The notes under the pieces: model-generated
The model's input: only the letters and a program-made list of their open reading frames with translations
The model's database searches: none
Told to the model about the DNA's origin: nothing
In this document: in pieces, positions 1,481 through 23,405 of the stretch
Numbering within the stretch: position 1 is the first letter of the stretch
How the letters are laid out: every line of letters starts with the position of its first letter
DNA from: a virus
DNA length: 23,414 nt
Virus genome (UHGV): UHGV-0114356
Reading direction: 5' to 3' (one strand)
Made by a program: the position numbers and the translations under genes

Positions 1481-1482
1481 AG

Positions 1483-4718: not shown

Positions 4719-4727
4719 ATTACATCC

Positions 4728-4753
4728 ATAAAAAAAGCACCCAATTGGGTGCT
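4728..4753 (-). terminator. intrinsic terminator/attenuator between I and J
   Basis: Minus-strand hairpin agcaccc-aatt-gggtgct (4736-4753) followed by a 7-T tract (plus-strand A run 4730-4736), just upstream of the J start. Confidence 0.5.
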
Positions 4754-4772
4754 TGATATTCAGAAAGGAGTT

Positions 4773-6085: not shown

Positions 6086-6097
6086 TGGTACGTCCGG

Positions 6098-6868: not shown

Positions 6869-7218
6869 TATGCATACACTCCGTAAGCCCGTTTGATGGT
6901 GAACGTCAATTCAGCAAACTTGCTGCTGATCTGATTTTTCCGTACGGAATCGGCGACTACCCGATAAAGCCCCTTCTCTTCTCCCGGCGGCGTGATGATG
7001 AAGGCCTTCACGGTATGAGCCAGGAGGAAGTCGCGCACTGCGTTTACCTCAGACTCACTGCCAACGTGTTTCATTGGCACCTGGATCGCCGTGGAGTTGA
7101 TGCCGTTCTCGGCCACCTGCTCATAGCCATCACCGAACTGCGCAGCGCGCACCGTTTGACTATATTCAATCGCCCCAGCACCGAGCTGCGAGCGCCAGCT
7201 GTATGTTTCAACTGCCAT
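6868..7218 (-). CDS. M: minor tail protein M
   Basis: Internal ATG at 7216-7218 with GGAG RBS (rc of 7219-7230 = tatggagtaaat) gives MAVETYSWRSQ...; FGDGYEQ matches lambda gpM FGDGYSQ. The longer track ORF (start 7269) runs through the upstream terminator, so it is not used. Confidence 0.75.
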   Translation of the reverse strand: MAVETYSWRSQLGAGAIEYSQTVRAAQFGDGYEQVAENGINSTAIQVPMKHVGSESEVNAVRDFLLAHTVKAFIITPPGEEKGLYRVVADSVRKNQISSKFAELTFTIKRAYGVYA

Positions 7219-7229
7219 ATTTACTCCAT

Positions 7230-7255
7230 AAAAAAAGCCCCGCGTATGCGAGGCT
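7230..7255 (-). terminator. intrinsic terminator after the moron gene, immediately upstream of M
   Basis: Minus-strand hairpin agcctcgca-ta-cgcggggct (7236-7255; one mismatch, one G-U) followed by a 7-T tract (plus-strand A run 7230-7236). Confidence 0.55.
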
Positions 7256-7305
7256 CTGTGTCGGTTCAAAGTATGGGCGATACTTTGTAATAAACTGAGA
7301 ACGGT

Positions 7306-7698
7306 TTAACTTCCATTCATTTCGACAAGCCGGTAATCAGTTTTCCCATCCTTGTCTTCAATGCATTCAGCTCTGAATTTCTGCTCAAGACCAAATTTGT
7401 TTTTAGCGCTAAATTCCTGCGTCGCGTAGAACTTACCGTCATTGCCGAGCCATCTGTTAGAGCCAAACGCCGACATATCCAGGGTGCTTTTATTGATCAC
7501 TGACTTTCTAACGTAAGCTTCACAGGCATTACGAAGTTCATCTAATTTTTTATCTGCAAGTTCCTTGGCTTCTTTTTGCTTTTTTTCTTGCTCGGTTGGT
7601 TTATTAACCACCGCTGCAACAAAAATCACAACAAGAAGAAGCAGCAACAGCCCAATGGTTCTTAGGATCTTCTTGATTATTTTATTTAACACAATCAT
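7306..7698 (-). CDS. membrane-anchored moron protein (130 aa), function unknown
   Basis: N-terminal basic stretch then one hydrophobic helix (ILRTIGLLLLLLVVIFVAAVV), a Lys/Glu-rich linker and a C-terminal domain with two Cys. Visibly AT-rich relative to flanking H and M; own terminator downstream; sits where lambda has no gene. Confidence 0.6.
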   Translation of the reverse strand: MIVLNKIIKKILRTIGLLLLLLVVIFVAAVVNKPTEQEKKQKEAKELADKKLDELRNACEAYVRKSVINKSTLDMSAFGSNRWLGNDGKFYATQEFSAKNKFGLEQKFRAECIEDKDGKTDYRLVEMNGS

Positions 7699-7748
7699 CC
7701 CCTGATCATTATGGTTTTCAACATATTAACCAGGGGGTGACGTAAACA

Positions 7749-10700: not shown

Positions 10701-10904
10701 TCCCTTCAGCGCAGCCTGCTGCTCTTTTGCCCCTTGGGCACCCTGCTTGCCAGCTTCAGCGCCGGCACGAAAAACACTGTTAAGGTCATCCGCTTTATCG
10801 ACAGCACCGGCCGCCGCCTGACCGAGTTTATCCAGCTCATTACTGGCTGTTTTCAGGTCAGAAACATCGGCCCGCAAAGTAATCGAGGCGATCTGGTCTG
10901 TCAT
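7749..10904 (-). CDS. H: tail tape measure protein
   Basis: 1051 aa, Ala/Gln/Glu-rich helical and repetitive, Gly-rich C-terminal part; AAGGAG RBS before ATG 10904; located between G-T and M as in lambda. Confidence 0.9.
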   Translation of the reverse strand: MTDQIASITLRADVSDLKTASNELDKLGQAAAGAVDKADDLNSVFRAGAEAGKQGAQGAKEQQAALKGLLENINPTLIALEKLEDQQVALQRFHAGGFLNTEEFKSYQTILDNTRQKLGETAEASMRAQAELAATQAAEKQSAALKNLLGSIDPTIRAFNSLDEQHAQLVAHFEAGRINGTQFEHFNTILNQTRERLSGVADVLPEALSRQEAAARRAGISVGQYSAALRTLPAQFTDIATQLAGGQSPFLILLQQGGQIKDSFGGLGPMLQALRDALFGFNEESRETSESAAGISDAAEGLNNTSEAAEKLGRAGGLLNTFNLAIAGSVGLLALLAGAAYSSSQQFDNVARSLILMGGAGFSSMQQLNDAAKDVADNAGASLAESVDTLVQLNDTGKYTADQMTKIAKSILAMGDAGLDTKAALADFSRLANDPIKALASLNQQYGFVDEAMMKHLITLEKTKGKTAAANEAITLFADTMEDRSNKIVEATDNIGKAWNGIKAFSSDIFGQIGVTVRAWGNQIIDIFELVKSSIKDLFLNITSLDAKFTSTIAGWADKIPGGGALANFLGMDVEAMKKAGAEADKEIEANKKRYNELWKRVTAPNAQANYEAEARGSNVKGDGGTSRESRDAVSKLAQDSAKKTKEAKATLDAGDRTLENYRAQARTLTETLETLRKTGETQVRYTEFSKQQSRFAELDEAAKTRALTAQEKSLLSSREAILNAAKVVDQKNKEVEAQQKINGLAQQANKYVTQMSEKTEALRGSAGLSSRQSQRMMEEAQLRQGWLNGGGKLDDAGYEKELAALRNYYSEEDKLRGDWKSGAVAGWNEYLDAATNTYDAVKNVASSTLTGLSDMLTSLMTTGKASIKEFGESMLKMIVEVTNRLMVAYAVQAAMGWISGGSGGGSTPGGAYANAAAGVTFNAKGGVYDSPGLSKYVNGVYDTPQHFTFQGASKFAKGGVFAEAGAEAIMPLTRDSAGRLGVRAQGGGGMAPIINTTVNVDAGGSVTTQTSSSGDAMGRALAEEMQNAALQVVQKQLKPGGMIYNFSKGR

Positions 10905-11547
10905 TATTTCGTCTCCTTGTGCATTACCTTGAGAGCCTCGCTTTCCATAATTTGAAGGTCAGCCATGCAGGCCGCCGCATCCTCAACCCCGTGTAACTCG
11001 AACATCCAGGGGAGAACGTTGTAATCAAGGCCGGTCGCCCCGCTCGCGCCGACTCGCCACTGGGTCGCCAGGGAAGAGAAGATGGTGAAAGACTTCCACA
11101 CAGAGGGCAGGATCCCCACCTCTTCCTCCACGTCCTCAGGCGTCAAACCAAAAGCGCTCAGCTCCGCGAGCGTCGGCCCCGGCGTATACAACGCTGCGGC
11201 GACCTGCCTCAGTTTTTTTCGCGGATACCCATAAGCTCTTTGGTGTAGGCCAGACCGATGCTGTCGAACGCGCGAGGATAGTTCTTCAGGAGGACAATTA
11301 CGTTATCGCGGGTGAACTCGTCAGGTAGTGCCCACCCCTCGACAATTTCCATGAGGTAGTCGGCCTGTGGCTCGATAGCATCCTTTTTACCTTCGGCGGC
11401 CTTTTGCAGCTTCTCGTCCATGGAGCGCAGCTCTCCCAGCGTCTTATGGCGGAAAGTGAACGTCAGCTTGCCGTCTTCGGCGCCAGCGCGCGGAATGCTC
11501 GCGGTCACAGAAAAAGTTGGGTTGGGGATCAGGGAAAATTTGGTCAT
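10904..11547 (-). CDS. tail assembly chaperone G-T fusion, made by -1 programmed frameshift (T-like C-terminal part 10904-11218)
   Basis: The -1 frame downstream of the slippery site is open from the G body through the 95-aa T-like ORF (...KKLRQVAAALYTPGPTLAELSAFGLTPEDV...LPSVWKSFTIFSSLATQWR...); the T ORF has no good start of its own (TTG). Arrangement as lambda G/GT. Confidence 0.6.
11209..11547 (-). CDS. G: tail assembly chaperone G
   Basis: ATG 11545-11547 with AGGAA RBS (rc of 11548-11560) gives MTKFSLIPNPTF... (113 aa), ending IREKN; acidic small protein directly after the major tail gene. The longer track ORF (start 11634) overlaps V and is not used. Confidence 0.7.
   Translation of the reverse strand: MTKFSLIPNPTFSVTASIPRAGAEDGKLTFTFRHKTLGELRSMDEKLQKAAEGKKDAIEPQADYLMEIVEGWALPDEFTRDNVIVLLKNYPRAFDSIGLAYTKELMGIREKN
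11212..11218 (-). other. slippery heptamer A-AAA-AAC for -1 ribosomal frameshifting (G to G-T)
   Basis: Minus-strand cgc-gAA-AAA-AAC-tga at the 3' end of G (plus-strand 7-T run 11213-11219); fits the X-XXY-YYZ rule and lies 3 nt before the G stop. Confidence 0.6.
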
Positions 11548-11581
11548 TTCGATTCCTAAGAAAGACTTTGGTTTCAGTAGC

Positions 11582-11604
11582 AAAGAAAGCCCGGCGTACC
11601 GGGC
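11582..11604 (-). terminator. intrinsic terminator/attenuator after major tail gene V
   Basis: Minus-strand hairpin gcccgg-tacg-ccgggc (11589-11604) followed by tttcttt (plus-strand aaagaaa 11582-11588), between the V stop and the G start. Confidence 0.5.
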
Positions 11605-11612
11605 TCGAGTGG

Positions 11613-12545
11613 TTAGCTGACCGTGACGGTGCAAGCAGCAGAGGTGATAGTTTTGCCCGCCGCGTCAGTGACTTCGCAGGTGTAAGAGCCAGCATCACCG
11701 GATGCCACAGATGGAATGTTGAACGTCGAGGCGGTTTTGCCCGGAATTGCGGAGCTTCCTTTCTTCCACACGTAGGTGTAAGGGGCTGAGCCGCCTTGCA
11801 TAACGACGGCTAAATCGAGCGCATCTCCAACACTAACTGCTTTGGTTGATGGCAGATCAGTCAGGAACGCCAGCGGCGTAACGGATGAATCGGCGATCGG
11901 GTAAATCTGCATATCCGATTCGAAGTTCATGCGCGCTTCGTTGCTTTCCACGGCGTTGATTTCGGTCTTAGGCACCTTCTGGAAAGACACTTTGGCAGAG
12001 TAATAACGGTCCGCTTTGCCGCGCGGGTTATGGAACCACACAGCAGTGGTGTCGCTGGATTCGTCAAGTTCACTCAGACGCTTGTAAATTGCCAGCAGCG
12101 GATCGTGCGCGAAGGTGTAGACCTGCACCACGGCGTTTTTGAAGGTCGGGATGGTACGGGCCTTATCGTCTTCAAGGAACTGCACGCTGATGGTCTGCTG
12201 GTCACCACCCTCTGTGGAGAGGGTCATCACCTGCGGCATCGTGATCCACGTGTCGATTTTACGCAGCGTGCCCGCGCCAGTGCCTGCCGGGAATTTGGTG
12301 GTGTCAGAGGTATCGAACGAATCCAGCACGATTTTGGTACCGGCTACGGATTTAACGCGCAGCACCATATTATCGAGTTTTAGCCAGCCGGAGCTCACCT
12401 GCACTACGTCGCCCGCCAGGATGCCAGCGGCAGATGCAACAGTCAGTTCGCATTCAGTAGCGTTAGAGGCAGCGGTAAAGGTGATGGGAGCCTGATAGGC
12501 CTTGGCCACGTTAACACGCGAGCCGTTAGGGATTGCGAATGCCAT
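11613..12545 (-). CDS. V: major tail protein V with C-terminal Ig-like (Big_2-type) domain
   Basis: 310 aa; AGGAGA RBS before ATG 12545; C-terminal ~90 aa (...YTYVWKKGSSAIPGKTASTFNIPSVASGDAGSYTCEVTDAAGKTITSAACTVTVS) has the Ig-like pattern seen at the C-terminus of lambda gpV; position upstream of G/GT/H. Confidence 0.85.
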   Translation of the reverse strand: MAFAIPNGSRVNVAKAYQAPITFTAASNATECELTVASAAGILAGDVVQVSSGWLKLDNMVLRVKSVAGTKIVLDSFDTSDTTKFPAGTGAGTLRKIDTWITMPQVMTLSTEGGDQQTISVQFLEDDKARTIPTFKNAVVQVYTFAHDPLLAIYKRLSELDESSDTTAVWFHNPRGKADRYYSAKVSFQKVPKTEINAVESNEARMNFESDMQIYPIADSSVTPLAFLTDLPSTKAVSVGDALDLAVVMQGGSAPYTYVWKKGSSAIPGKTASTFNIPSVASGDAGSYTCEVTDAAGKTITSAACTVTVS

Positions 12546-12566
12546 AGCACTCTCCTGAATTTAGGT

Positions 12567-12591
12567 AATAAAAAACCCGCCATCTGGCGGG
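12567..12591 (-). terminator. intrinsic terminator between tail terminator gene and V
   Basis: Minus-strand hairpin cccgcc-agat-ggcggg (12576-12591) followed by ttttttatt (plus-strand A run 12570-12575), immediately after the stop at 12592. Confidence 0.5.
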
Positions 12592-13041
12592 TCAGTAGTC
12601 AGCGCGGTACTGCATGCTGACGGGAATGGTGTAGGTTATGGAGCCACTGGACCCGTTGGACGCCGAGGTTGGCCGGTCCTGGATGGGTTGTCTCACCTGC
12701 GGCGGCCCATTGATATAAACAGTCAGGTCACCATCTACCAGCGCAAGCCCTTCAGGAAACGCATCAGCGACAGATTTAGCCAGCCCTCTGGCCTGCGTCA
12801 CGCCGCTGCCTGCTGGCGCAATGATGTTGAGCTGCAGGATGCCCTGATAGGTTCGCAATTGACCTTCCAGGTCTTGCCCCACCGTCTGTGCCGGCAGAAC
12901 ATAAACACGCCCGTATGGTGAGCTATCCGGGGGAGTAAACGGTATGTTCGGCCAGGCTACGGGCAGCCCAAGCGATAAGCAGATAACCGCAATGCGGCTC
13001 TCCAGTAGTTCAGCAATTCGCATTGACTGGTCACTGGCCAT
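12592..13041 (-). CDS. putative tail terminator protein (gpU-like by position)
   Basis: 149 aa; GAGGTG RBS before ATG 13041; directly upstream of the major tail gene, the position lambda U occupies. No sequence similarity to lambda U recognised by eye. Confidence 0.4.
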   Translation of the reverse strand: MASDQSMRIAELLESRIAVICLSLGLPVAWPNIPFTPPDSSPYGRVYVLPAQTVGQDLEGQLRTYQGILQLNIIAPAGSGVTQARGLAKSVADAFPEGLALVDGDLTVYINGPPQVRQPIQDRPTSASNGSSGSITYTIPVSMQYRADY

Positions 13042-13630
13042 TGCGCACCTCGCTCATTGCCTCACGGAACAACTGCGCGGCATCCAGCGCAGTGATGCCC
13101 ACCATGCCGCCGGGTGCCTGGCCGGAATGCCCGTTCTCCAGTGCTGCCGCATATGGCAGATTATTGGTGAAGAAAATCGAGCTGACCTGCCCTACCCGGA
13201 ACACCTCGAGCACTGCCAGACCGCGGGAGTTGGAACCCTGGCCGGAAGCGTCGGGGGTGTCGTTGGATTGGCTTGGCTGGCTGTCAAAGCCCACATACCA
13301 GTTGTTTTTAAACCGCCCGCCGACATAGCCCTCAGGCTTTTTGATGTCCATCGAGTCGTTGACGCGCAGGCCGCGCTTAAGTCGTCCTGATTTGGTCAGA
13401 TTAGCCGGGTCATCACGCAGGGTCGCGTTATGCTCCCGCACCGCAGTGTTGTACGCCGTCGCGGTCTGGTTGACCTGCCAGATATCCGGTTGGCCCACCG
13501 GGGACATCTCAACCAGTTGAGCGAGGATTTTAATACCCGTCCGGCGCACCACCTCGTCCATCTCCTGCTTCGAGCCATCCACGAACAGCTGAATGGCAGC
13601 CAGGAACGGCTGATTAACAGACCCCACCAT
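13031..13630 (-). CDS. putative tail completion / head-tail joining protein (gpZ-like by position)
   Basis: 199 aa; translationally coupled to neighbours (overlapping stop/start); size and position match lambda Z. Family not verified. Confidence 0.4.
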   Translation of the reverse strand: MVGSVNQPFLAAIQLFVDGSKQEMDEVVRRTGIKILAQLVEMSPVGQPDIWQVNQTATAYNTAVREHNATLRDDPANLTKSGRLKRGLRVNDSMDIKKPEGYVGGRFKNNWYVGFDSQPSQSNDTPDASGQGSNSRGLAVLEVFRVGQVSSIFFTNNLPYAAALENGHSGQAPGGMVGITALDAAQLFREAMSEVRNGQ

Positions 13631-13632
13631 AG

Positions 13633-13986
13633 TTACGCCCTCAGTTGGATGTTGTAGGAAATCAGCACATCGGCAGGCTTAACCGGATTCGGCTGCACCA
13701 CGCGCCATTTTTTGCCGTCGATTTCGATGCGGTCATCGATGCGCACTTCCGTCTCGAAAGTGGCCGCCAGCTTCTTGTCGCCGGTGGCGATCAGGGAACC
13801 GTCGATTTCGCGGGAGGAGTATTCGGTGATAACACCGGTTACGGTCGCGGTAATGGCCGGGGTGGTGACCTCTTTGCCGAACTGGTCACGGATGGTGCCG
13901 CCGCCGCGGGTAAGCTGATATGCCTTCCCGTTCTCGGTCAGCAGTCGGGTCGCGGTCGCGCGCATGCGGCGGTAGTCGATTGGCAT
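13633..13986 (-). CDS. putative head-tail joining (neck) protein
   Basis: 117 aa, same size and relative position as lambda FII; no motif recognised. Confidence 0.35.
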   Translation of the reverse strand: MPIDYRRMRATATRLLTENGKAYQLTRGGGTIRDQFGKEVTTPAITATVTGVITEYSSREIDGSLIATGDKKLAATFETEVRIDDRIEIDGKKWRVVQPNPVKPADVLISYNIQLRA

Positions 13987-13987
13987 G

Positions 13988-14470
13988 TCACCCCCTTTCG
14001 ATGCGGATCTGATTGCCGCCCACCACTAGCCCACGCAGCGAGGAATAGAACCAGGGGAATGACGGCGAGGCCTTATTGGTTCCCGGCTCGTACTGCACGG
14101 TCACCGCGCCCTCTACGCGCTCCATCGTCACCGCCCCGCCACCAGCAACCGAAGGCGTGAGGTCAATCTCCTGCGATTCGATAGCCAGGCGACATTGAGC
14201 ATCAACCACGCGCTGTGGAATAGCATCGTCCGGAAGGTCAACGCCATCGAAGCGTAAGCCCGAGCGCGGCCACGACAGCGGCTGTGATGCGCTGGAACGC
14301 TGGCCACGCCATGTTTTGCCTTCCAGAAAGTCCATCGCCTGCATCAGCATCTGGCTGCATTCGCCATCTTCAGCAGGGATGGTGTATCCGCGCCCCGCAG
14401 CGAACGCGCGCAGATCACCAACGCTGGCATAGCTGTTGAAGTCAGACGAATGGGGATCGGCATTAATCAT
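13988..14470 (-). CDS. putative head-tail connector/adaptor protein
   Basis: 160 aa; N-terminal YASVGDLRAFAAGRGY...W...LSWPRSG pattern recalls phage head-tail connector families; position after the capsid gene cluster. Confidence 0.4.
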   Translation of the reverse strand: MINADPHSSDFNSYASVGDLRAFAAGRGYTIPAEDGECSQMLMQAMDFLEGKTWRGQRSSASQPLSWPRSGLRFDGVDLPDDAIPQRVVDAQCRLAIESQEIDLTPSVAGGGAVTMERVEGAVTVQYEPGTNKASPSFPWFYSSLRGLVVGGNQIRIERG

Positions 14471-14483
14471 CTCAGAGCTCCTC

Positions 14484-14795
14484 TCAGGCTTCGAAAAGCT
14501 TCTGCTTTAACGCATATCCCATCAACGCCCACAACTCGCTTTCGGCGTTCTCAATAGCAATTTTCTCGCCAATTTCAGCGTTGTCGTTAGCGGAGGAAAC
14601 TGAGCACGACGGATTCCCTGTTACTGCGAATCCGTTTTGAGTGGTGATGACCGCCCAGCGAAGCACCTGCCAGGTGACGGATACGTGCTTCACGATCTCG
14701 GCATGCTTAATATTCGCCTTCAACTCGCCCAGCGTAACGCGCGGCGCGTTCAAGCCTTTGGCCTGAATTTCCTGCTCAATATCTTTATCGCTCAC
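14484..14795 (-). CDS. conserved phage hypothetical protein (103 aa)
   Basis: Continuous ORF in the operon frame context; no family assigned with confidence. Confidence 0.45.
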   Translation of the reverse strand: MSDKDIEQEIQAKGLNAPRVTLGELKANIKHAEIVKHVSVTWQVLRWAVITTQNGFAVTGNPSCSVSSANDNAEIGEKIAIENAESELWALMGYALKQKLFEA

Positions 14796-14797
14796 AG

Positions 14798-15019
14798 TTA
14801 CTCCTCCAGTCGCCAGTCCAGCGCCAGCCAGTTATCGACTTCGTCAGGGTGAACCTCAGCGCTCAGCGGACCGCCGGGGAACTCTGGCTCGTCACGCACC
14901 ATTACCACCAGCTCAATACCCTGCGGTTCCTGCGGGGCAGGAGTTTTTACATCACCACTCTGCGCGGCAAGCTTTTCAGCCTCACGCTGTGCGCGCTGTT
15001 CTTTGGTTAATCCGGCCAT
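14798..15019 (-). CDS. small acidic hypothetical protein (73 aa)
   Basis: ATG 15017-15019 with strong AGGAGG RBS (rc of 15023-15028), immediately after the capsid-gene terminator; MAGLTKEQRAQREAEKLAAQ...; the listed TTG start at 15037 lies inside the terminator stem and is not used. Confidence 0.45.
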   Translation of the reverse strand: MAGLTKEQRAQREAEKLAAQSGDVKTPAPQEPQGIELVVMVRDEPEFPGGPLSAEVHPDEVDNWLALDWRLEE

Positions 15020-15030
15020 TGGGCCTCCTG

Positions 15031-15052
15031 AAAACAAAGGGGCCGAAGCCCC
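15031..15052 (-). terminator. intrinsic terminator/attenuator after the major capsid gene
   Basis: Minus-strand hairpin ggggc-ttcg-gcccc (15039-15052) followed by tttgtttt (plus-strand aaaacaaa 15031-15038), directly after the capsid stop at 15058. Confidence 0.5.
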
Positions 15053-15057
15053 TATGG

Positions 15058-16194
15058 TTAACCCATGATGATGGCGGAATGTTCAGGCTGAACGGATGCC
15101 ACACCCCATGCCACACCAACCTCGTAACGTACCTGGCGGTACTGGCGGTACAGCGCGATCTGGAAGGTGATGCCGGATGCTGGGTCGGTCACGTTCATCA
15201 CATCGTCGGCGGTATCGCCGCCTTTTGGCATTGCCGGGGTGCGGCACGCCAGCAGGAATGCGTTGCGGTCGAACGCCATGTTTGGCGCAAACTCGCTCAG
15301 CACAGTGACGGCTGCCTGGTCTGCCAGATCCTGACGCAGACCCGGCGCACCAATGGTGATGCTGGAAGAAGTGGCGGCAACGACCAGATACTGATTGTCA
15401 TCACCATCGAATTTCACTGCGGTGCCGACTGCAATCCCACCAGTACCTGCAGAGATAGCAACGATGATGTCGCCTTCTTTCTTCGCACCGTTGACCTTGT
15501 AGCCTGCGGCGGTGCTTTTCGCGGTACGCTTGATGTTGGCGGATTCATGCAGGTTGAAGCCCATCACGCGACCGATGATGCCTTCGCGCAATAGCTGGTC
15601 GGTACCGGCTTCATTCGCTTTGAACAGCACGGACTGCTTACCACGAATGGAGGCCATCGCTTCACCGCCCAGCACCATACGCAGGTCGGTAGTTGGCGCA
15701 CCGTTATCAACCAGAATCTGGCGAGCCAGCGCTGCATCAGACAGATCGTCTTTGATGCTGAATGGCGTATCTTTCGGCGCACCGACAGCGCGAGAGGATT
15801 TGTAGTACAGCGCCGCCAGATCAGCATCCATCTCATTGCTCAGCGCGCGGAAGGCCTGAGAGAACTGGTCAGCCAGGATGACGTCGTAATTACCTGACGG
15901 CCCGATAGCCAGCTGTTCTTCACCGTTCCATTTGACCGGGGCCATTTTGGATTTGGTGATTTTGACATCCACGGTACCGATGTTCTGATCGCCATCGTTC
16001 GGTGCGGTCGCTGCGGGGGTGATATCGACGGTGGTGGTTTTTGGTGCCACCGGCGCGGTGACGGTCTGGTCTTTAGCCGCAGCGTCAGCTTTCGCGTTGC
16101 GCGCAACGGCAGGGATGAAGCCCACCTGCTCGCGGGATACGCGGTTCAGTGCGGTGTACAGAGTAGGAATCAACCCAGTAAGCGTATTGCTCAT
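15058..16194 (-). CDS. major capsid protein
   Basis: 378 aa, the abundant structural gene following a scaffold-like gene and followed by an attenuator; AAGGA RBS before ATG 16194; Ala/Gly/Val-rich composition typical of HK97-fold capsid proteins. Fold not verified. Confidence 0.75.
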   Translation of the reverse strand: MSNTLTGLIPTLYTALNRVSREQVGFIPAVARNAKADAAAKDQTVTAPVAPKTTTVDITPAATAPNDGDQNIGTVDVKITKSKMAPVKWNGEEQLAIGPSGNYDVILADQFSQAFRALSNEMDADLAALYYKSSRAVGAPKDTPFSIKDDLSDAALARQILVDNGAPTTDLRMVLGGEAMASIRGKQSVLFKANEAGTDQLLREGIIGRVMGFNLHESANIKRTAKSTAAGYKVNGAKKEGDIIVAISAGTGGIAVGTAVKFDGDDNQYLVVAATSSSITIGAPGLRQDLADQAAVTVLSEFAPNMAFDRNAFLLACRTPAMPKGGDTADDVMNVTDPASGITFQIALYRQYRQVRYEVGVAWGVASVQPEHSAIIMG

Positions 16195-16213
16195 ATTCTA
16201 AATATCCTTTCGA

Positions 16214-16966
16214 TTAATCGACGATGCTGACGCCATTGCTCAGTGCAGCCTGCTTGCCTGCGCCATCCAGAGCGTCGAACGCACCGCGTTTCATGGTTTT
16301 TTGCCCGGCCTGATGCTGCGACTGGTGAGAGCCGCCGCCGCTGTTACCGGACGCTTTGAGGATGTAATCTTTCTGCGGATGCGACTCGACCAGAGACTCC
16401 AGGGCCTCATCAAAGCTGGCTAACTCGCCGGGCTTGGTGCGTGAGAACACCTTATTGCCCTGGCCGTCGTAGGCCACAACCTTCCCTTCTTCGATTTTGA
16501 AGTTCTGACCGAAGTAGGAACGCACGAACTCAGTCGGGATCGCCATCTTCTCGGAAATGAACTTAGAGCCACCGAAGCGGCCGCCGATCATCTCGTCGTA
16601 GAGTTGAGTTTCCAGCTGTTTGGTCTTGCCGTTCGCCTCGTCCAGTTGCTGTTGGAAAACTTTGGTGATCTCCGCCTTTACCTGGTCAACGGCACCAGCA
16701 TCGATCAGTTTTTTCTGGTCGATTTTGGTCATCATCTCCAGGGCTTCGAGCGCCTTGGCCGGGTCGGTGATGCCAGAGAATTTCGCGAGATTGGCTTCCG
16801 CCGCTTCCTTCGCTTCGCGGTGAGTTTTCGCCTCGCCATTCAGGGAGGTGATTTTGGTCATCGCTGCGACCGCATCGAACGGGATCTCTTTGCCATCATC
16901 ATGGATGTACACAGGCATACCGTTTTCAACGACCACATTTCCGTTAGCATCAAGTTTCAGTTTCAT
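16214..16966 (-). CDS. putative capsid scaffolding protein
   Basis: ATG 16964-16966 with GGAG RBS (rc of 16967-16980 = gctggagcaaaaca) gives MKLKLDANG...; helical, charged, Lys/Glu/Ala-rich; located directly upstream of the capsid gene. The track start at 17005 has no RBS. Confidence 0.55.
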   Translation of the reverse strand: MKLKLDANGNVVVENGMPVYIHDDGKEIPFDAVAAMTKITSLNGEAKTHREAKEAAEANLAKFSGITDPAKALEALEMMTKIDQKKLIDAGAVDQVKAEITKVFQQQLDEANGKTKQLETQLYDEMIGGRFGGSKFISEKMAIPTEFVRSYFGQNFKIEEGKVVAYDGQGNKVFSRTKPGELASFDEALESLVESHPQKDYILKASGNSGGGSHQSQHQAGQKTMKRGAFDALDGAGKQAALSNGVSIVD

Positions 16967-17044
16967 TGTTTTGCTCCAGCCTTCCGGCCATACGTAATGG
17001 GTCATCCGACCCGGGCACCGCGTCGCATCCGCTCAGCGGCAGGC

Positions 17045-17069
17045 ATAAAAAAAGCTGCCCGGAGGCAGC
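17045..17069 (-). terminator. intrinsic terminator closing the two-gene insert
   Basis: Minus-strand hairpin gctgcc-tccg-ggcagc (17054-17069) followed by a 7-T tract (plus-strand A run 17047-17053), just after the stop at 17073. Confidence 0.55.
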
Positions 17070-17072
17070 CTG

Positions 17073-17282
17073 TTAGATAAATTCGACGGTTACTACGCCG
17101 CGCAGTTTGCGGGAATAGAACTCATCCCGCTTGCGCTTGTGGACCCGGAGTGGATATGGATAGAAGCATGCGATTCCTCGCTTAACATCCGCCCATATGC
17201 AGCGTTTGGCCTCGTTGCCGTTAACGAACACTCGGCGCTTACCGCGGCCATCGCCCACATGGTGAAAATCGTCATCTCGCAT
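17073..17282 (-). CDS. small basic hypothetical protein (69 aa)
   Basis: ATG 17280-17282 preceded by GGGGGG (rc of 17283-17297 = cttggggggtgttct); MRDDDFHHVGDGRGKRRVFVNGNEAKRCIWADVKRG...RVHKRKRDEFYSRKLRG, Arg/Lys-rich. Frame choice and start are uncertain. Confidence 0.4.
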   Translation of the reverse strand: MRDDDFHHVGDGRGKRRVFVNGNEAKRCIWADVKRGIACFYPYPLRVHKRKRDEFYSRKLRGVVTVEFI

Positions 17283-17305
17283 AGAACACCCCCCAAGCAA
17301 CTGGT

Positions 17306-17770
17306 TTAGAGAATTTGCCAGTCATCAGCCAAGACGTCGGTTTGGCTTGGTGCCCAAGGCACGCGAGCGCCATTTGGGTATGGCATAGCACCATTGCCCG
17401 GCACCGGATAAATTAAACGAATGTACGGCAGGTCCACAGATGGCGACTGCTGGACCAGCTCAAGCCACAGGCCCTTGCCGTTCCAGCCTGCGCGGGTGAC
17501 ACGCTTGCCTGATTTCAGGGCTTCGACAGCCAGTCCGAAGCTAAGCCCCGCCACTGGTCGGTAGGCTTTGTCGAACACATCTTTCGGACTCCAGCTCACA
17601 TACCCGTTGAAGCGATCGGTATTTGGCTTTCCGCCATCCAGATACTCGACGAGATAACCTTCATCACTTCCGTTTTCGTCACTTGGTAACTCCCAACCAC
17701 GAAAGTCGTTATATGCCAGACGGGTCATCGGGTAAGCATTGATGAGCTTCACGCCAATATGTTGAGTCAT
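17306..17770 (-). CDS. DUF2829-like (Tad2-family candidate) protein with N-terminal extension
   Basis: 154 aa; C-terminal region AVEALKSGKRVTRAGWNGKGLWLEL...VPWAPSQTDVLADDWQIL matches my recollection of the DUF2829 signature (the family containing Thoeris anti-defence Tad2); assignment is from memory, not from a search. Confidence 0.5.
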   Translation of the reverse strand: MTQHIGVKLINAYPMTRLAYNDFRGWELPSDENGSDEGYLVEYLDGGKPNTDRFNGYVSWSPKDVFDKAYRPVAGLSFGLAVEALKSGKRVTRAGWNGKGLWLELVQQSPSVDLPYIRLIYPVPGNGAMPYPNGARVPWAPSQTDVLADDWQIL

Positions 17771-17790
17771 TGTTTTATTACCTTATTCAG

Positions 17791-18894
17791 TTATTCAAAA
17801 GCCGACGCATCCACGCGGCGTAGCTCGTCCAGGGTCAGGAACTCCCCGGCATCGTTGAACATCTCCGGCACGGTGATTTTGCCGTCACGGAGCATCTGCG
17901 CACGAGTAACGCCCAGCACCTGCTCCTGCCGCGCGTAAGGCTGCCTCACAAGCCATTCGGCATAGCTGGTATGCACTGGCACCTGGCCGTCCATGGACGC
18001 TCTGGTTGCGTTGCTCAGTTCGTCAGGCGGTATCTGCAATTCTTCCCACGACTTAGTGATGAGGATTTCACCGGAGCGACAGCAGAAGTGGATTTTGCCG
18101 GGTCCGCGTAGGTATGGGACCACATGCCCCAGCGGCTTGCCGTCGAGCGTGTAGAGCTTGCGGTCGCGGATGATGCACCACTGGCTGGTATGCGTGTCCA
18201 GCGTGGAGGACCACTGCTTGGCCTTCACGATATCGCTGTTGGCCTGGGCGAACTCCTGGCGCGCTGTGGCGGCCATGTGATTCACCGCGGTGCGGGTCAC
18301 CACCGCCAGGTCGCGACGGGATGTGTTGATCACCCCGTCCTCGCGATTTCTCTGCGGCGTACCCGCTACGCGCCGGACAATCTGCTCTACCGTTTCGCCC
18401 TGGAGGAAACCGGAGCGTACAGCGTTGGTGATTTTGTCCAGCCGATCCAATTCAAGCTTCTGACTCCACTCTTTCAGCAACCGCCCCTGAAAGGGCTGCG
18501 CCACTGCTGAGGCGTAAACCTGTTCTGCCGCAATGCTCTGGAGCGGCACATGCTTGAGGATCTGTTTAGGGATGATGCTGCTGAACAGGTTCAGCTGATA
18601 CCCGGTCTCATATTCAACGTAGCGCGTCAGTTCGCGCGTCAGCGCAGCATTAACCGGTTCATAGGCCTGCTGGTTGAGGTCCCGCACACCAGCCAGCAGC
18701 GAAGCTAGGCGGCGGGCGCTGTAGGTGTCGGCACGCTTGCCGTCCAGCAGCACCAGCAGTTTTGCAGCAAGGTCAGCATCCAGCCTGTTCAGCAACGACA
18801 CCATGCGCCGGGCGACGCCAGTGCCGTAGCGGTTCACATAAAGCCCGTGCGCTATGGTTTCGTCCTGAAGCCTGTCATTGACGGAACGGGCCAT
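17791..18894 (-). CDS. head morphogenesis protein (Mu F-like / SPP1 gp7-like minor capsid protein)
   Basis: 367 aa directly downstream of the portal gene with 1-nt spacing; size and position typical of Mu F-like head morphogenesis proteins. Confidence 0.7.
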   Translation of the reverse strand: MARSVNDRLQDETIAHGLYVNRYGTGVARRMVSLLNRLDADLAAKLLVLLDGKRADTYSARRLASLLAGVRDLNQQAYEPVNAALTRELTRYVEYETGYQLNLFSSIIPKQILKHVPLQSIAAEQVYASAVAQPFQGRLLKEWSQKLELDRLDKITNAVRSGFLQGETVEQIVRRVAGTPQRNREDGVINTSRRDLAVVTRTAVNHMAATARQEFAQANSDIVKAKQWSSTLDTHTSQWCIIRDRKLYTLDGKPLGHVVPYLRGPGKIHFCCRSGEILITKSWEELQIPPDELSNATRASMDGQVPVHTSYAEWLVRQPYARQEQVLGVTRAQMLRDGKITVPEMFNDAGEFLTLDELRRVDASAFE

Positions 18895-18895
18895 A

Positions 18896-20299
18896 TCACA
18901 CCTCGCCTATCGTTCTGGTATCCAGCGAGGAGGATTCAGCCAATAACTCGTCCAGGACCTTTTCTGGGTCTGCGTCTGCATCAATCAGGTTAAGCTTCTG
19001 CAGCGCCTTAATGGCATCGATACGGCGGAGGTCGCCACCCTGGCGAAGTGACTGAATAGCCAGCGCCGCAGGCGGGTTAAACTCTTTCGACTCGACATCC
19101 AGCTCAGTGCGAACATCAACGTTGCCACCATCTTTCTCGCCGATGTACTCAGCCATGATTTGCAGGATGTTGTCGATCGCATCTTCAAGGCTGGTAGCCA
19201 TGGTGTAGAGCGGTGACTGCTCCTGCATTTTCTCTTCAGAGGTCTGGTCTACCGATTTGGTAGAGGTGTTCTCTGTACGCAGCAACTTCGCGCCCGCCTG
19301 GCGCATCTGCTCCACAAGTTCTGCCAGCGACTCTTTACCAGCACCGATGGAGGAGCCTGTATGCTCGACGTATTCCAGACCCTGCTTTTGCCGATCAGTG
19401 AACGACGTAGCTGAAGACGAGCCAATTATCAGCTCTTGCCCCTCTTCCAAACCGAACACCGTGAGCAACGGCACCCTGGCGACGTGCAGAATGTTGTCCT
19501 GCTCGCTCTGGCTCTGCCAGTGCTTGATGTTCAGCAGGGCCATGTTGAGCAGTGGCGGTGAACCACACATAAACCCGGTGCGTTTGGTGTAGAGCGTGAC
19601 CAGAGTGATATCCTGGCGGGATGTCTGCCACCCATCGAATAGCGCCCAGGTCGCGGCACCGTCAGCATCTTTAGCCTTGCGGTAAATTTCCACCTTTCCG
19701 GGTGTCAGGTATCGGATTTGCTCGACTTTGGTCTGCCCGAAGTCGTCGCCGTCTTCGACCACAACCTCTTTGATACGCAGCGCAGTCAGCACCACTTTTC
19801 CGTCCACCATTTTCGACTTCCAGCCAATTACCTGGCGTGGATTAAGCATGGTGACATAGGGGCGCGCGCCGGTAGTTTTCTCTTCAGCTTTGGTTTTCAC
19901 CTTTTCGGTGTCCACCCTGGGATAATCCACCAGCGCGTGGGAGAGTCCATACTGCATCGCCAGACCGAAGAATGCCTGCGCCCATACGTCCAGGCGCGTC
20001 CCCTCAAGGTCGAAGTTTTTCGCATACTCTCGCAGCTGATCAGGCACATTCTCGGCAAGCTTAATGGGCTCGGCGAATACACGCCCGATGTTTTGCTTAA
20101 TGGTCTCTTCGTAGGCTGGCAGAAGCGTGGCCACGGCGAGGCGTTTTTTGTAATCCTCTTTGTCTTCCTTGGGCCAGCGAGGGAGATAGGACTCGCCCAG
20201 CTGGCGCATATACAGCGTGCCGCCCATCAGGGCATCGTTGATATCCCACGCCTCGACCATGTTCCCATAGTCCAGATTTGGGGTTGAAATATCAGGCAT
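18896..20299 (-). CDS. portal protein
   Basis: ATG 20297-20299 gives MPDISTPNLDYGNMVEAW... (467 aa); the track start at 20374 would overlap the terminase gene. Large acidic protein immediately after the large terminase gene. Confidence 0.8.
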   Translation of the reverse strand: MPDISTPNLDYGNMVEAWDINDALMGGTLYMRQLGESYLPRWPKEDKEDYKKRLAVATLLPAYEETIKQNIGRVFAEPIKLAENVPDQLREYAKNFDLEGTRLDVWAQAFFGLAMQYGLSHALVDYPRVDTEKVKTKAEEKTTGARPYVTMLNPRQVIGWKSKMVDGKVVLTALRIKEVVVEDGDDFGQTKVEQIRYLTPGKVEIYRKAKDADGAATWALFDGWQTSRQDITLVTLYTKRTGFMCGSPPLLNMALLNIKHWQSQSEQDNILHVARVPLLTVFGLEEGQELIIGSSSATSFTDRQKQGLEYVEHTGSSIGAGKESLAELVEQMRQAGAKLLRTENTSTKSVDQTSEEKMQEQSPLYTMATSLEDAIDNILQIMAEYIGEKDGGNVDVRTELDVESKEFNPPAALAIQSLRQGGDLRRIDAIKALQKLNLIDADADPEKVLDELLAESSSLDTRTIGEV

Positions 20300-20303
20300 G
20301 GGA

Positions 20304-21875
20304 TTAGATCCGTAGGTTGGTGACTTTGCCGACTTTCTTCGGCGGTGAATGCAGGACGGCATATCTAGTGCCATCCCAGTCGTGATCTTCCTGCTGAGTG
20401 TCTACGTCATCAGGGTTCTTACTGTCGCGAACGAGCACCGGAACACGGCTTATCCAGCCGCGGCAATAGTCGAAGACGTAGAATGCTGGTTTCTCAGGTA
20501 CACCAGATTCCAGCTTCTTACCCTCAAGGACGGCCTCCAGCATGTCAGCAAAGAGGGCCGCTCCGTTTACGCGCGATCCCGGTTTCTTGTTGGATGGAAC
20601 CCACTTAACGCCCTGCGATTCCATCTTCTGGGCAATAGAGAGCTCGTCATCGCCAGTGTTGTAGATGGCACCGTCAGCTGGGCCCGGCACAACCTTTTTG
20701 CAGATACCGGGCATGATGTTCAGTTGCCCCTGAGTTATCCCATTGAGTTTTATCTCTTCAGGTTCAGGCAGCTCTTCGCCCATCAGTCGCTTATCAATCC
20801 AGGCCACACCCTTGGCGACGTTTGTCGAGCTCATATTGAGCCCTTTGTTCAGCTCGTCAGGTGGACAGCCATACCACTCGCCAATCAGGATCAGCGACCC
20901 GGCAGGCGGGCAGAACTGGCGACCATCAGGCAGTTCTGCGGCAGTACCGTCGGCTCGCGCCCACCAGAGGTTAGAGAACGGCTTCGACTCACCCCAGTCA
21001 TGGGAACGGTCAACCGTCCAGCTATCCGGGATGCGGAACGGCTTAATGACGTGCAGCGATGCATTCCACAGGTGGTCAAAGCGCCCACCGCTGGTGACAT
21101 CCCAGGAGCCCTCTACCCAAGCTTTGCGGCGGTTCGGGTCTTTGATGGCCATCAGCGTTGCGATGTACTGGGGATCCAGATACGGGTTCTCTTTGAACGA
21201 GCCGTGAATAGCCACGCGCGTCAGCGTCACATCCTCTTCGCGCTCAGTTTGCGGGTTAAACACCTGCTGCGTTTCACGAATGATGGTGCCGCGGGGCGCT
21301 GGCTCGATGAAGCGTTTCTTCACCCAGGTGTGGCCGATGCCAAACGGGTTAGTGGTGCTGAACGTCTCCAGGGGAATAGGCTTAAGTAACGAACCGTCAC
21401 CCAGCGGGTAATTCTCAGGCCGGAACGAGGAGCGCCGGCAAGAGAACATCATCTCGTAGAATTCAGGGGACTGCTGCTTGGTCAGCTCGTTAAAGCCGAT
21501 GAACGGAAACTCCTGGCCGTGATAGTCCCAGTAGTCACCCTCTTCTTTCCCGAAGCGGAACAGCAGCTCCTCTCCAGTCGGCCACACCCAGCGCAGTTCA
21601 GATGCTGACGCCAGATAGCGTGCGCCGTCGTTAAACAGGCGATACATGCGCTTTGACTGGGTAATGATATCGGTGAGGTTCTTATACTCGGTATCGAAAA
21701 TGACACCGCGCCAGAACGAACCATAGCCCAGACCAACCAGACGACGAAAGCGCGCCAGCTGCGCGGCAGTTTTACCCGGCCCGCGCGTGCCCTCGTAGAG
21801 AATTTCGTTACATGGACAGCTCAGGGAGAGCGATTGCGATCCCGGCAAGGGTTTCCAGACGGCTTTGTAATTCAT
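20304..21875 (-). CDS. terL: terminase large subunit
   Basis: Walker A-like P-loop YEGTRGPGKTAAQ near the N-terminus and acidic nuclease-type C-terminal half; start ATG 21873-21875 overlaps the TerS stop (ATGA), giving MNYKAVWKPLPG... Confidence 0.9.
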   Translation of the reverse strand: MNYKAVWKPLPGSQSLSLSCPCNEILYEGTRGPGKTAAQLARFRRLVGLGYGSFWRGVIFDTEYKNLTDIITQSKRMYRLFNDGARYLASASELRWVWPTGEELLFRFGKEEGDYWDYHGQEFPFIGFNELTKQQSPEFYEMMFSCRRSSFRPENYPLGDGSLLKPIPLETFSTTNPFGIGHTWVKKRFIEPAPRGTIIRETQQVFNPQTEREEDVTLTRVAIHGSFKENPYLDPQYIATLMAIKDPNRRKAWVEGSWDVTSGGRFDHLWNASLHVIKPFRIPDSWTVDRSHDWGESKPFSNLWWARADGTAAELPDGRQFCPPAGSLILIGEWYGCPPDELNKGLNMSSTNVAKGVAWIDKRLMGEELPEPEEIKLNGITQGQLNIMPGICKKVVPGPADGAIYNTGDDELSIAQKMESQGVKWVPSNKKPGSRVNGAALFADMLEAVLEGKKLESGVPEKPAFYVFDYCRGWISRVPVLVRDSKNPDDVDTQQEDHDWDGTRYAVLHSPPKKVGKVTNLRI

Positions 21876-22360
21876 CCACCAAGAACCTCGCTCTGCTGCT
21901 TCTGCGCTGCTGCTTCCCACTCATTCACGTTATCGCAGGATGGGACCGGCATAACGTTATGAGTGGCAACCACTGTTTGCTCTACTTTTTGTTTGTTCGT
22001 GTAAGCATCGCCAACTTCCTTGGCCGCCTGCTCCATCAGGGCGGCAGTAAGGGCCATGTTTTTCATTCCCTCTGCTTTCGTAGCCATCCTGTCGAGTACA
22101 CGCAGCCGATATGCCTTATTGGCGATCGGGATATCGGAAATTTCATTCTGGAAGCGTTCGCGAGTTGCGTTGAAAAGTTCGACCCACTTTTTTGCGAGCG
22201 TCTTACCGCTGGCCTTCGTAGGGTCGTGAGATTCGGCCTGTTGTCGGGTTATATTGATCCCGAATTCTTTTTGGACAGCCTCGACCACCTGCGATGGCGT
22301 GTCATAACACGCAAGCGACTGAATGATGAAGGCTTTCACATCAGGTTTTAATGCAGCCAT
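21872..22360 (-). CDS. terS: putative terminase small subunit (DUF2280-like)
   Basis: 162 aa, translationally coupled to terL; N-terminus MAALKPDVKAFIIQSLACYDTPSQVVEAVQKEF resembles the DUF2280-type small-terminase candidates found next to large terminases. Confidence 0.6.
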   Translation of the reverse strand: MAALKPDVKAFIIQSLACYDTPSQVVEAVQKEFGINITRQQAESHDPTKASGKTLAKKWVELFNATRERFQNEISDIPIANKAYRLRVLDRMATKAEGMKNMALTAALMEQAAKEVGDAYTNKQKVEQTVVATHNVMPVPSCDNVNEWEAAAQKQQSEVLGG

Positions 22361-22391
22361 AAATCACCATTCGTCTTATACAGTCCAGTAT

Positions 22392-23030
22392 TTAAGCCAG
22401 TTTCAGCATGCACGTCCCGCATGCTCTGGCGATGTTAAGTTTTGCCACCTCTGCAGGTTGATTGGCTGCGTCCACCAGCTCTTGCACGTCAGTGCTCGCC
22501 CCGTATCGACGTACTACACCGACAAACTCTTCGACATCGTGGCCGCGCAATGTGAGAACTGGCTGCCCGGTCTCTTTGTTGAACTTAGGTGCGCCGAAAT
22601 CATCGGTGGCCTGGGCAATGTGGTAAAGCTCATGCTCTACCAGGGCGCAGAATTCAAGGTCGCTGCATTGTGAGCAGTAGTCGGCTGCCAGCGTGATGAT
22701 GAACTTCGGGATGCGCCCGAACCATTCATACATCTGCTGTTCCATTCTGGCTTTCTGCCAACCACCTGCGCGGAGCATTACCTGTTCGGCCTGTCCGAGA
22801 ACGTAGCGCCCTTTCTTCGCGAATGAGTCAGAAGCCCACATAAAACACAAATCAGCTTCCATTAAATGGGCGTGGTCTGGGTTATGGATGCTTCCGCTAT
22901 CGCTGAGGATTTGATGGCTTATCCAGTCATGCACTTCATTGGCGGGAATCAATCTGGTGTAGGGCTGCCAGTTATCAGGGCCAATGAAATTAACTGGTGG
23001 AAGTGGCCTGCGCTCGTCTTCGTTCACCAT
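22392..23030 (-). CDS. HExxH-motif protein (putative phage metallopeptidase-like), 212 aa
   Basis: ATG 23028-23030 with AGGAT RBS; contains LVEHELYHIAQ (HExxH) and several Cys (CSQCSDLEFC, ARACGTC). Family assignment is tentative. Confidence 0.55.
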   Translation of the reverse strand: MVNEDERRPLPPVNFIGPDNWQPYTRLIPANEVHDWISHQILSDSGSIHNPDHAHLMEADLCFMWASDSFAKKGRYVLGQAEQVMLRAGGWQKARMEQQMYEWFGRIPKFIITLAADYCSQCSDLEFCALVEHELYHIAQATDDFGAPKFNKETGQPVLTLRGHDVEEFVGVVRRYGASTDVQELVDAANQPAEVAKLNIARACGTCMLKLA

Positions 23031-23033
23031 GAG

Positions 23034-23405
23034 TTAATCCTGTTTTATATACGGCAAAAATGCCGAAAACATTCTGTCGAGCAGATAGCAGTAGGTTTCG
23101 TTTGCGTCTTCCGGCTTGGTCGTTACGCCCACATCAGAGCAGACGTAAAAACATACGTGAGCGCATTCGTGAACGAGAGTTGATATCTGCTGATCGAATA
23201 CTCCAATCAGGTAAACTCGCTCTCCCGTATCGGTGTTTTCATAGTTGTTTGCCAGTCCACAGTTGAATGGCCTTTCCTCTCCGCTACCACCAAGGAATTT
23301 ATCAGCGTGCTGAAACTGTTCTCTGGTTGTTGCGAGGTAGACATGCGCACTTTGAAACAGCGGAATGGTGAATGCCGGAAGTCTGTGCCATTTGGCTTTT
23401 GCCAT
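23034..23405 (-). CDS. small HExxH-motif protein (123 aa as listed; 5' end may lie beyond the window)
   Basis: Contains TLVHECAHVCFYV (HExxH); the frame is open to the window edge, so the true start is uncertain; stop is 3 nt before the next gene's start. Confidence 0.45.
   Translation of the reverse strand: MAKAKWHRLPAFTIPLFQSAHVYLATTREQFQHADKFLGGSGEERPFNCGLANNYENTDTGERVYLIGVFDQQISTLVHECAHVCFYVCSDVGVTTKPEDANETYCYLLDRMFSAFLPYIKQD

Follow-up and report, generated by a model that had tools for sequence, protein, structure and literature searches.

The head and tail gene block of a probable HK639-like prophage: a non-lambda head with a T1-type neck and tail shaft

The 23,414-nucleotide (nt) stretch of virus genome UHGV-0114356 analysed here (the window, taken from the metagenome scaffold ERZ28578782 scaffold_811 in ENA) is very probably the late operon, coding for structural proteins, of a temperate siphovirus prophage of the HK639 type, lying on the minus strand and made up of several modules. 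Every long open reading frame (ORF) of the window is on that strand and nearly all of the genes can be named by homology (Table 1). A preliminary description, made from the sequence alone, had viewed the region 11613-21920 as a mosaic in which a lambda-like tail module was joined to a head and packaging module of other origin. As a general impression this was accurate, but it put the wrong label on half of the tail, in which a neck and shaft of T1 type precede a tape measure and tip belonging to a broad superfamily that takes in lambda, HK97, N15 and T1. Equally, the arrangement is already known: it is the ordinary head-tail block of HK639-like temperate phages and not a new mosaic.

The clearest evidence comes from phage HK639 (NC_016158), which is collinear with the window from 1349 to 21965 at 85% nucleotide identity, covering 76% of the window. 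Amino acid (aa) identity between the structural proteins of this phage and those of the window is 73-97%, from the large terminase subunit (TerL) as far as the second part of J. A single reference phage is thus collinear across both modules, which overturns the earlier picture of a mosaic. HK639, a lambdoid temperate siphovirus, has the same order from TerL to J, the same G/T frameshift site and terminators at corresponding intergenic positions, four of which are annotated (before the scaffold gene and after the tail terminator gene, V and I). It differs in having an unrelated N-terminal domain in the small terminase subunit (TerS), an H protein only 73% identical and another J C-terminus. Five accessory genes of the window (those for the metallopeptidase, the Tad2-like protein, the 75-aa product, the gp49-like protein and the 128-aa membrane protein) are missing from HK639. 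The phage carries instead an extra gene between V and G, and lipoprotein, HK639_17 and YafO genes between H and M. In the papers that mention it, HK639 figures as a lambdoid phage (PMC12315714) or serves as a prophage label in Enterobacter and Klebsiella genomes, HK639-like prophages having been reported in the former (PMC5974468). A literature search on this head type found nothing specific.

The same block is widespread. At least 80% of the window is matched, at 90-94% identity, in eleven complete Escherichia coli genomes, the exact V protein is present in 212 blocks of the assembly collection, and a relative of the capsid protein is encoded in 562 IMG/VR contigs; among the best 80 of these, all that extend into the tail carry the same neck and tail. 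A species-level scan, with one genome per species, yielded 41 loci with capsid relatives, mostly from Enterobacterales, and a gene-by-gene matrix of 33 species-level relatives of the capsid gene fell into three groups. Twelve close relatives (capsid 85-98%) share the neck and tail at around 85-99%, their genera including Pseudescherichia, Yokenella, Kluyvera, Enterobacter, Leclercia and Atlantibacter. At least ten distant relatives, in genera such as Rahnella, Erwinia, Serratia, Yersinia, Photorhabdus and Franconibacter, retain the pairing although their identities drop to 71-77% for the capsid, 51-58% for the adaptor and 40-45% for V. Lastly, at least nine of the 33, as full-length loci, combine the same head (portal 67-73%, capsid 73-76%) with other tails, having no relative of the adaptor, tail terminator, V, G or T.

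Since the pairing persists in relatives as distant as those of the second group, the sequence comparisons point to an old, conserved architecture, an established and widespread lineage rather than a junction peculiar to this element. The preliminary reading, of a distinctive junction within 12592-15019 at which a lambda-type tail from V to J met a foreign head, could draw on head genes without lambda similarity and on the existence of relatives with this head and other tails, but it is hard to reconcile with the collinearity of HK639 and hundreds of contigs over the supposed junction, or with the distant relatives just mentioned. The structural genes have a G+C content of 55-59%, higher than is typical of E. 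coli, and at species level its closest relatives belong to Pseudescherichia, Yokenella, Kluyvera, Enterobacter and Leclercia; together these facts suggest that the phage group circulates among several genera of Enterobacteriaceae. With an architecture already deposited with HK639 and common in Enterobacteriaceae prophages, the discovery value is small. The value for annotation is greater, the joining genes now being named by homology and the head/tail joint and four accessory insertion sites mapped, which should help in reading related prophages.

Comparison with lambda (NC_001416) shows where the earlier label came apart. The tail gene order V, G/GT, H, M, L, K, I, J had been given correctly and is that of lambda, which also has the -1 chaperone frameshift and, for H, M, L, K, I and J, the same Pfam families (PF06791+PF09718, PF05939, PF05100, JAB+NlpC/P60, PF06805 and PF24801+PF13550+PF09327, respectively). 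At the protein level the identities are 28% for H, 30% for M, 29% for L, 34% for K, 31% for I and 35% for J, over its N-terminal 40%. The statement that several sequence blocks follow lambda does not survive at the DNA level, where the likeness amounts to a single high-scoring segment pair of 146 nt, at 71%, within H. No lambda match was obtained with tblastn for V, G, T, the tail terminator or the neck proteins, and there is no similarity in Nu1/A/W/B/C/Nu3/D/E/FI/FII/Z/U/V/G/T. Lambda's families here are PF06141 (U), PF16461+Big_2 (V), PF06894 (G), PF06223 (T), PF06763 (Z) and PF05354 (FII), none of which characterises the window; its counterparts are PF13554, PF08813 with an Ig domain, PF08748 and DUF1799, with PF20557 in addition in the neck. 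Lambda V scores 23.8 bits with PF08813, short of the cut-off at 24.2, so that any relationship between the two V proteins would be a distant one. The description of the tail as lambda-like from V through J therefore stands for H, M, L, K, I and the N-terminus of J, which share families at 28-35% identity, and falls for V, G and T, which are of T1 type. Despite the matching gene order and the H-J families common with lambda, the families of V, G, T, the tail terminator and the neck make a distinctive junction with a lambda-type tail quite unlikely. The lesson for annotation is that a lambda-like gene order should not be taken for homology; kinship with lambda is confined to the tip and is distant there.

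Phage T1 (Drexlerviridae, NC_005833) has the families that lambda lacks. In T1 as in the window the terminator belongs to PF13554, the tube protein to PF08813, G to PF08748 and T to DUF1799, at 27-38% aa identity, and both have the slippery heptamer of the chaperone frameshift. From head closure through J the identity to T1 is 27-51%; within the neck it is 27% for head closure, 35% for Neck1 and 30% for the terminator, to none of which lambda has a match, and residues 1-212 of V are 38% identical to T1 gp41. Of the tail proteins that match lambda, L, K, I and J are nearer to their T1 counterparts, and H and M about equally near to both phages (27-43% for T1 against 28-35% for lambda). The virion as a whole is nevertheless not of T1 type: tblastn found no T1 match for TerS, TerL, portal, Mu F-like protein, scaffold or capsid, and the Pfam families differ. 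T1 is virulent, has its own terminase, portal (PF06381), capsid (PF09950) and adaptor (DUF4054), all unrelated to those of the window, and its tube protein is without an Ig domain.

The families, the 27-38% identity and the heptamer common to T1 and the window could be taken to mean that a virulent T1-like phage recently donated the neck and shaft, the element being a fresh temperate/virulent hybrid. However, the identity to T1 is low and uniform, and across 50,697 phage records T1-like phages reach just 35-40% in the V tube domain (aa 1-215) and no virulent phage is more than 70% identical to the neck/shaft block. The same module is found in temperate relatives of many genera at 40-99%, so that any transfer would be ancient, and a recent acquisition is extremely unlikely.

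For M to J the closest classical phage is HK97, at 44-75%. The tips of HK97 and HK022 resemble that of the window in M, L, K and I (44-49%, compared with 29-34% for lambda, 29-43% for T1 and 86-95% for HK639) and in J (52-75%); the Ig domain of V is 50% identical, and the 3' part of J and the region downstream are 78-99% alike at the DNA level. These phages differ in having an HK97-type head with a protease and another neck, tube domain and set of chaperones, and similarity to them is absent upstream of the C-terminal quarter of H. The H protein itself is 28% identical to that of lambda, 73% to that of HK639 and 99% to that of E. coli EC09. It is the T1 families and identities of the neck and shaft, together with the closeness to HK97 over M-J, that lead to the composition of the tail given above.

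The head-tail joining genes had been thought assignable by position only, but homology names the adaptor Ad1, head closure Hc1, Neck1/tail completion and tail terminator, two of the proteins of the block being without a Pfam match. The V protein is a mosaic at domain level inside one gene, with a T1-type tube domain and an HK97-like Ig domain. The latter (11613-11900, aa 208-310) matches tube and decoration proteins of many phages, including the tube proteins of HK97 and HK75 at about 50%. The chaperones G and G-T belong to the families of T1 gp40 and gp39, respectively. Their proposed frameshift is real: G ends in ...CGC GAA AAA AAC TGA, with the heptamer A_AAA_AAC at 11218-11212, the -1 frame stays open on to 10904, where H starts, and the heptamer is kept in 88 relatives, T1 included, whose G proteins are 31-96% identical. 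Xu, Hendrix and Duda are said to have described the -1 frameshift of tail chaperones as conserved.

Modular mosaicism of lambdoid phages is textbook knowledge, and the third group of relatives, with its other necks and tails, bears out the view that head and tail modules reassort within this phage group. Rac-like phage vB_EcoS-673R7, Klebsiella phage 5 LV-2017 and Flyfo siphovirus Tbat2_3 share the module from the portal to the small head gene, in the same order and at 40-75% identity, but differ in adaptor, terminator, tube and chaperones and, in two of the three, in the terminase as well. Klebsiella phage 5 LV-2017 and the Flyfo siphovirus join this head to a DUF1833-type tip. In the Rac-like phage record L is 93.5% identical to that of lambda, and the L, K, I and J proteins of Rac-like prophage loci in E. 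ruysiae and S. flexneri are 79-98% identical to their lambda counterparts. The combination of this head with a truly lambda-like tip thus exists, but in Rac-like prophages and not in the element of the window.

These relatives also locate the joints. Similarity to the phages with other tails stops with the 73-aa gene, the last that they have in common with the window (40-56% aa in Klebsiella phage 5, Rac-like and Flyfo phages), and neck/tail similarity starts at the adaptor, so the head/neck joint can be mapped to 14471-14800, exactly the site of the rare gp49-like gene. The boundary does lie within 12592-15019, as had been stated, and can be placed far more sharply than had been supposed. Another joint is inside TerS, of which HK639 and many relatives have only the C-terminal third in common; the HK639 protein matches over aa 92-162 only, at 44%, its N-terminal domain having been swapped. 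A third separates TerL from the portal, this TerL being present in only 52 of the 107 relatives that share this portal; about half have an unrelated Terminase_2 and Terminase_6N/6C pair instead. At a joint between H and M, three distant relatives change from 41-54% identity in V, G and T to 76-92% in M, L and K, and a further joint is inside J. As a separate observation, relatives L135, L136, L140 and L142 have the N-terminal DUF2280 domain of TerS swapping independently both of the C-terminal third and of TerL.

A finer patchwork is visible against E. coli EC09. Blocks at 99.5-100% identity (1-1200, 2801-6500, 7201-11300, 17101-17800, 18701-21700 and 22601-23200) alternate with blocks at 76-87% (1501-2800, 7001-7200, 11401-16300, 17801-18300 and 21901-22400), and the best donors differ: Enterobacter hormaechei B17-3 for the V block (99.0%), an Enterobacter metagenome-assembled genome (MAG) for the gp49 block (99.7%), IMG/VR contig L053 for the capsid block (96.4%), two IMG/VR contigs including L073 for the TerS block (99.7%, against 76% to EC09) and E. 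coli ABWA45 for 6501-7200 (100%). The largest replaced block, 11401-16300, comprises V through the capsid gene and passes straight across the head/tail joint. The latest visible exchange with respect to EC09 therefore spans that joint rather than ending there, a further point against a junction distinctive of this element.

Such a patchwork could also arise if several related prophages had been merged into one metagenome scaffold during assembly, and the origin of the window and the presence in J of two lesions absent from all other assemblies searched (see below) would agree with that. However, an isolate assembly (GCA_032660945.1) matches 11613-21920 at 99.97% (two mismatches and one gap over 10,308 nt), 100% matches of further isolates to other blocks extend past the block borders, and the microhomology at the J junction, 5 nt, is far below assembler k-mers. 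An artefact of this kind is very unlikely overall, and for 11613-21920 the isolate match rejects an assembly chimera of the whole patchwork, which is real in that region.

The broken J gene deserves separate treatment. In EC09 it is intact (1304 aa); in the window two lesions change the reading frame and divide it into three ORFs. Near 3233 one copy of a GGCG tandem repeat is missing, a 4-nt deletion with flanks otherwise identical to EC09, and at 1513-1547 there are 35 extra bases. It is this 35-nt insertion, through the frame change that it causes, that separates J2 from J3; the alternative of an in-frame stop was rejected on the arithmetic. The window tracks the allele of E. coli H6 as far as ...ACACTGCCGT and past the junction follows that of EC09, from (GCCGT)CACCACGG..., giving an out-of-register join at a 5-nt microhomology in which the coding segment for AVTTxxGxxVxLP is duplicated. 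The 32-nt junction sequence is absent from IMG/VR, no complete E. coli genome matches window 1400-1700, which spans the junction, in a single piece, and neither lesion was seen in the other assemblies searched. The lesions reflect either prophage decay or assembly error.

With somewhat less than even confidence, two readings may be put forward: the 35-nt insertion as a genuine and recent out-of-register join of H6-type and EC09-type alleles at GCCGT, and the head/neck joint at 14471-14800 as a recurrent point of exchange. If so, the J insertion would be a preserved example, in a non-functional state, of the illegitimate recombination thought to create the boundaries of phage mosaics, while 14471-14800 would serve both for swaps of whole tail modules and for the insertion of cargo such as the gp49-like gene.

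A scheme for the element can be proposed on this basis. A packaging and head module comprises a TerS with DUF2280 as its predicted DNA-recognition domain, TerL, the DUF4055 portal, the Mu F-like protein, a separate scaffold, a distantly P22-like coat and the 73-aa gene; Rac-like and several Klebsiella-type temperate phages have its part from the portal to the 73-aa gene in common. A second module, of T1 types, makes up the neck and tail shaft with adaptor, head closure, Neck1, terminator, tube and G/G-T chaperones made by -1 frameshifting. In the third, H, M, L, K, I and J belong to the superfamily of lambda, HK97, N15 and T1, closest to HK97/HK022 and only 28-35% identical to lambda. Variation would follow three routes. 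Homologous recombination among co-circulating relatives is suggested by the alternation of blocks at about 100% and about 80% identity, with nearest relatives that differ from block to block. Whole modules may be exchanged at a few joints (inside TerS, TerL/portal, 73-aa gene/adaptor, H/M and inside J), and small accessory genes, or morons, are probably gained and lost at fixed intergenic sites.

Some points weigh against our view of the window as the late operon of an HK639-like prophage. Membership of the HK639 group would rest on the structural arm, as the window breaks off a little way upstream of the terminase genes, with the early region (immunity, antitermination) outside, where HK639 has its put-like antiterminator RNAs, CI-like immunity and Rec module. 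The roles given to the proteins in assembly are those that family names predict. Neither TerL nor the capsid protein found a relative in the PDB by sequence, and nothing is read from them as to packaging type or capsid subtype. Finally, in a metagenome scaffold some of the block borders outside 11600-22400 could be assembly chimeras.

Table 1. Features of the window in gene order, from 23.4 down to 0.9 kb
Feature	Position	Strand	Family match or motif
123-aa ORF, upstream of metallopeptidase		minus	HECAH (HExxH) motif
Putative phage metallopeptidase (accessory)	22392-23030	minus	PF18894 E 5.3e-43
TerS, N-terminal DUF2280	21872-22360	minus	PF10045 E 2.5e-51; phrog_5334 E 9.5e-6 on aa 65-159
TerL, 523 aa	20304-21875	minus	phrog_2 E 3.2e-27; Walker A GTRGPGKT
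Portal, DUF4055 type	18896-20299	minus	PF13264 E 4e-43; phrog_145 E 1.7e-148
Mu F-like head morphogenesis (minor head) protein	17791-18894	minus	PF04233 E 3.4e-7; phrog_241 E 1.8e-155
Tad2-like (DUF2829) accessory gene (moron), 154 aa	17306-17770	minus	PF11195 E 4.6e-20 on aa 77-154
75-aa accessory ORF	17073-17300 (element 17052-17300)	minus	phrog_3540 E 3.5e-32
Scaffolding protein, DUF6651	16214-16966	minus	PF20356 E 6.7e-68; phrog_206 (head scaffolding) E 4e-24
Major capsid protein, distantly P22-coat-like	15058-16194	minus	PF11651 E 6.7e-12; phrog_283 E 4.6e-121
Small head-module gene, 73 aa as called in relatives	14798-15019	minus	phrog_1514 E 3.6e-32
N4 gp49/Sf6 gp66-family accessory gene	14484-14795	minus	PF13876 E 1e-14
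Neck block	12592-14470	minus	PF20557, PF13554; phrog_477, phrog_161, phrog_169, phrog_179
Adaptor Ad1	13988-14470	minus	phrog_477
Head closure Hc1	13633-13986	minus	phrog_161
Neck1/tail completion	13031-13630	minus	phrog_169
Tail terminator	12592-13041	minus	PF13554
Tail tube protein V: T1-type tube domain (aa 1-215) and C-terminal Ig-like domain	11613-12545	minus	PF08813 E 9.6e-45; Ig_3
Tail assembly chaperones G (11209-11547) and G-T	10904-11547	minus	PF08748, PF08809 (DUF1799)
Tape measure H	7749-10904	minus	PF06791, PF09718
128-aa membrane-anchored protein (moron)	7306-7692 (element 7234-7721)	minus	phrog_35526 E 1.3e-77
M	6868-7218	minus	PF05939
L	6098-6868	minus	PF05100
K	5354-6085	minus	Prok-JAB+NLPC_P60
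I	4773-5366	minus	PF06805
Central tail fibre/host specificity gene J (three ORFs)	869-4718	minus	PF24801, PF13550, PF09327
Lipoprotein, 76 aa, between J and the side tail fibre gene	607-837	plus	phrog_12984; lipobox LTAC

The packaging and head genes are where the preliminary description had placed them and are indeed unlike those of lambda: its DUF2280 TerS, Walker A TerL, portal, Mu F-like protein and separate scaffold and capsid genes could all be recognised, tblastn of the corresponding proteins against the lambda genome gave nothing below E 0.1, and the Pfam families differ from those of lambda Nu1, W, E and FI. TerL, portal and capsid are 92%, 95% and 94% identical in aa sequence to HK639, respectively, the portal being 67-72% identical to Rac-like, Klebsiella phage 5 and Flyfo phages and the capsid 74-75% to phages with other tails. 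Position 21920 is the start of the mechanical ORF of TerL, whose start in relatives is at 21875. Terminator-like hairpins follow the 75-aa ORF, the capsid gene (15053-15038), the tail terminator gene, V, the 128-aa gene and I; all promoter and terminator calls in the window are consensus matches only. Rfam at gathering thresholds and a tRNA scan of the window revealed no non-coding RNA family and no tRNA.

Gene-by-gene comparison with relatives confirms that accessory genes are inserted within the modules; the counts that follow are of relatives having both flanking genes. Morons, a concept reportedly developed by Hendrix, Juhala and colleagues along with that of the modular mosaic evolution of lambdoid phages, are marked by variable presence between conserved neighbours and by a promoter and/or terminator of their own, and the accessory set has these features. 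The Tad2-like gene, between the Mu F-like and scaffold genes, is present in 5 of 109 relatives. Its C-terminal domain matches the solved structure of SPO1 Gp34.65/Tad2 (PDB 8sme, E 5.4e-11), solved anti-Thoeris (Thoeris anti-defence 2) Tad2 proteins at E 5e-11 to 1e-9 and also AcrIIA7, so the Thoeris signalling nucleotide is a candidate but uncertain target of the protein; an extra N-terminal domain matches phrog_9467. The neighbouring 75-aa ORF occurs in 36 of 109 relatives, and the pair have in common a terminator-like hairpin (17071-17052, 8 bp and a T run) 3' of the latter. The gp49-like gene, found in 5 of 94 relatives and absent from HK639 and EC09, has its nearest copy in the Enterobacter MAG (99.7% nt); neither a promoter-like nor a terminator-like site of its own was found.

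The 128-aa protein, which has an N-terminal hydrophobic/transmembrane helix and may be a moron of the superinfection-exclusion type, is encoded in 17 of 65 relatives. With a promoter-like site at 7721-7694 and a strong terminator-like hairpin at 7257-7234, its gene has the classical moron layout. The gap between H and M in which it lies is hypervariable, ranging from 0 to 3.6 kb among relatives and elsewhere holding Fic, YafO toxin or lipoprotein genes. The V-G gap, gene-free in the window, ranges from 0 to 1.6 kb.

Outside 11613-21920, the metallopeptidase is 72% identical in aa sequence to that of the Flyfo siphovirus and is common to Klebsiella and Citrobacter phages. It forms with the 123-aa HECAH ORF a pair (22392-23405) just upstream of TerS that HK639 lacks. 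At the other end of the window, the lipoprotein gene occupies the position of cor in T1, N15 and HK022; its identification as Cor was rejected, since a BLASTP comparison with the Cor protein of E. coli H6 gave no match. Beyond it, 47-182 is 99.3% identical to HK97 19158-19293, the J-stf intergenic region and start of stf, and this segment may be behind the matches to the window at 99% identity or more that have been reported for 3,630 E. coli records.

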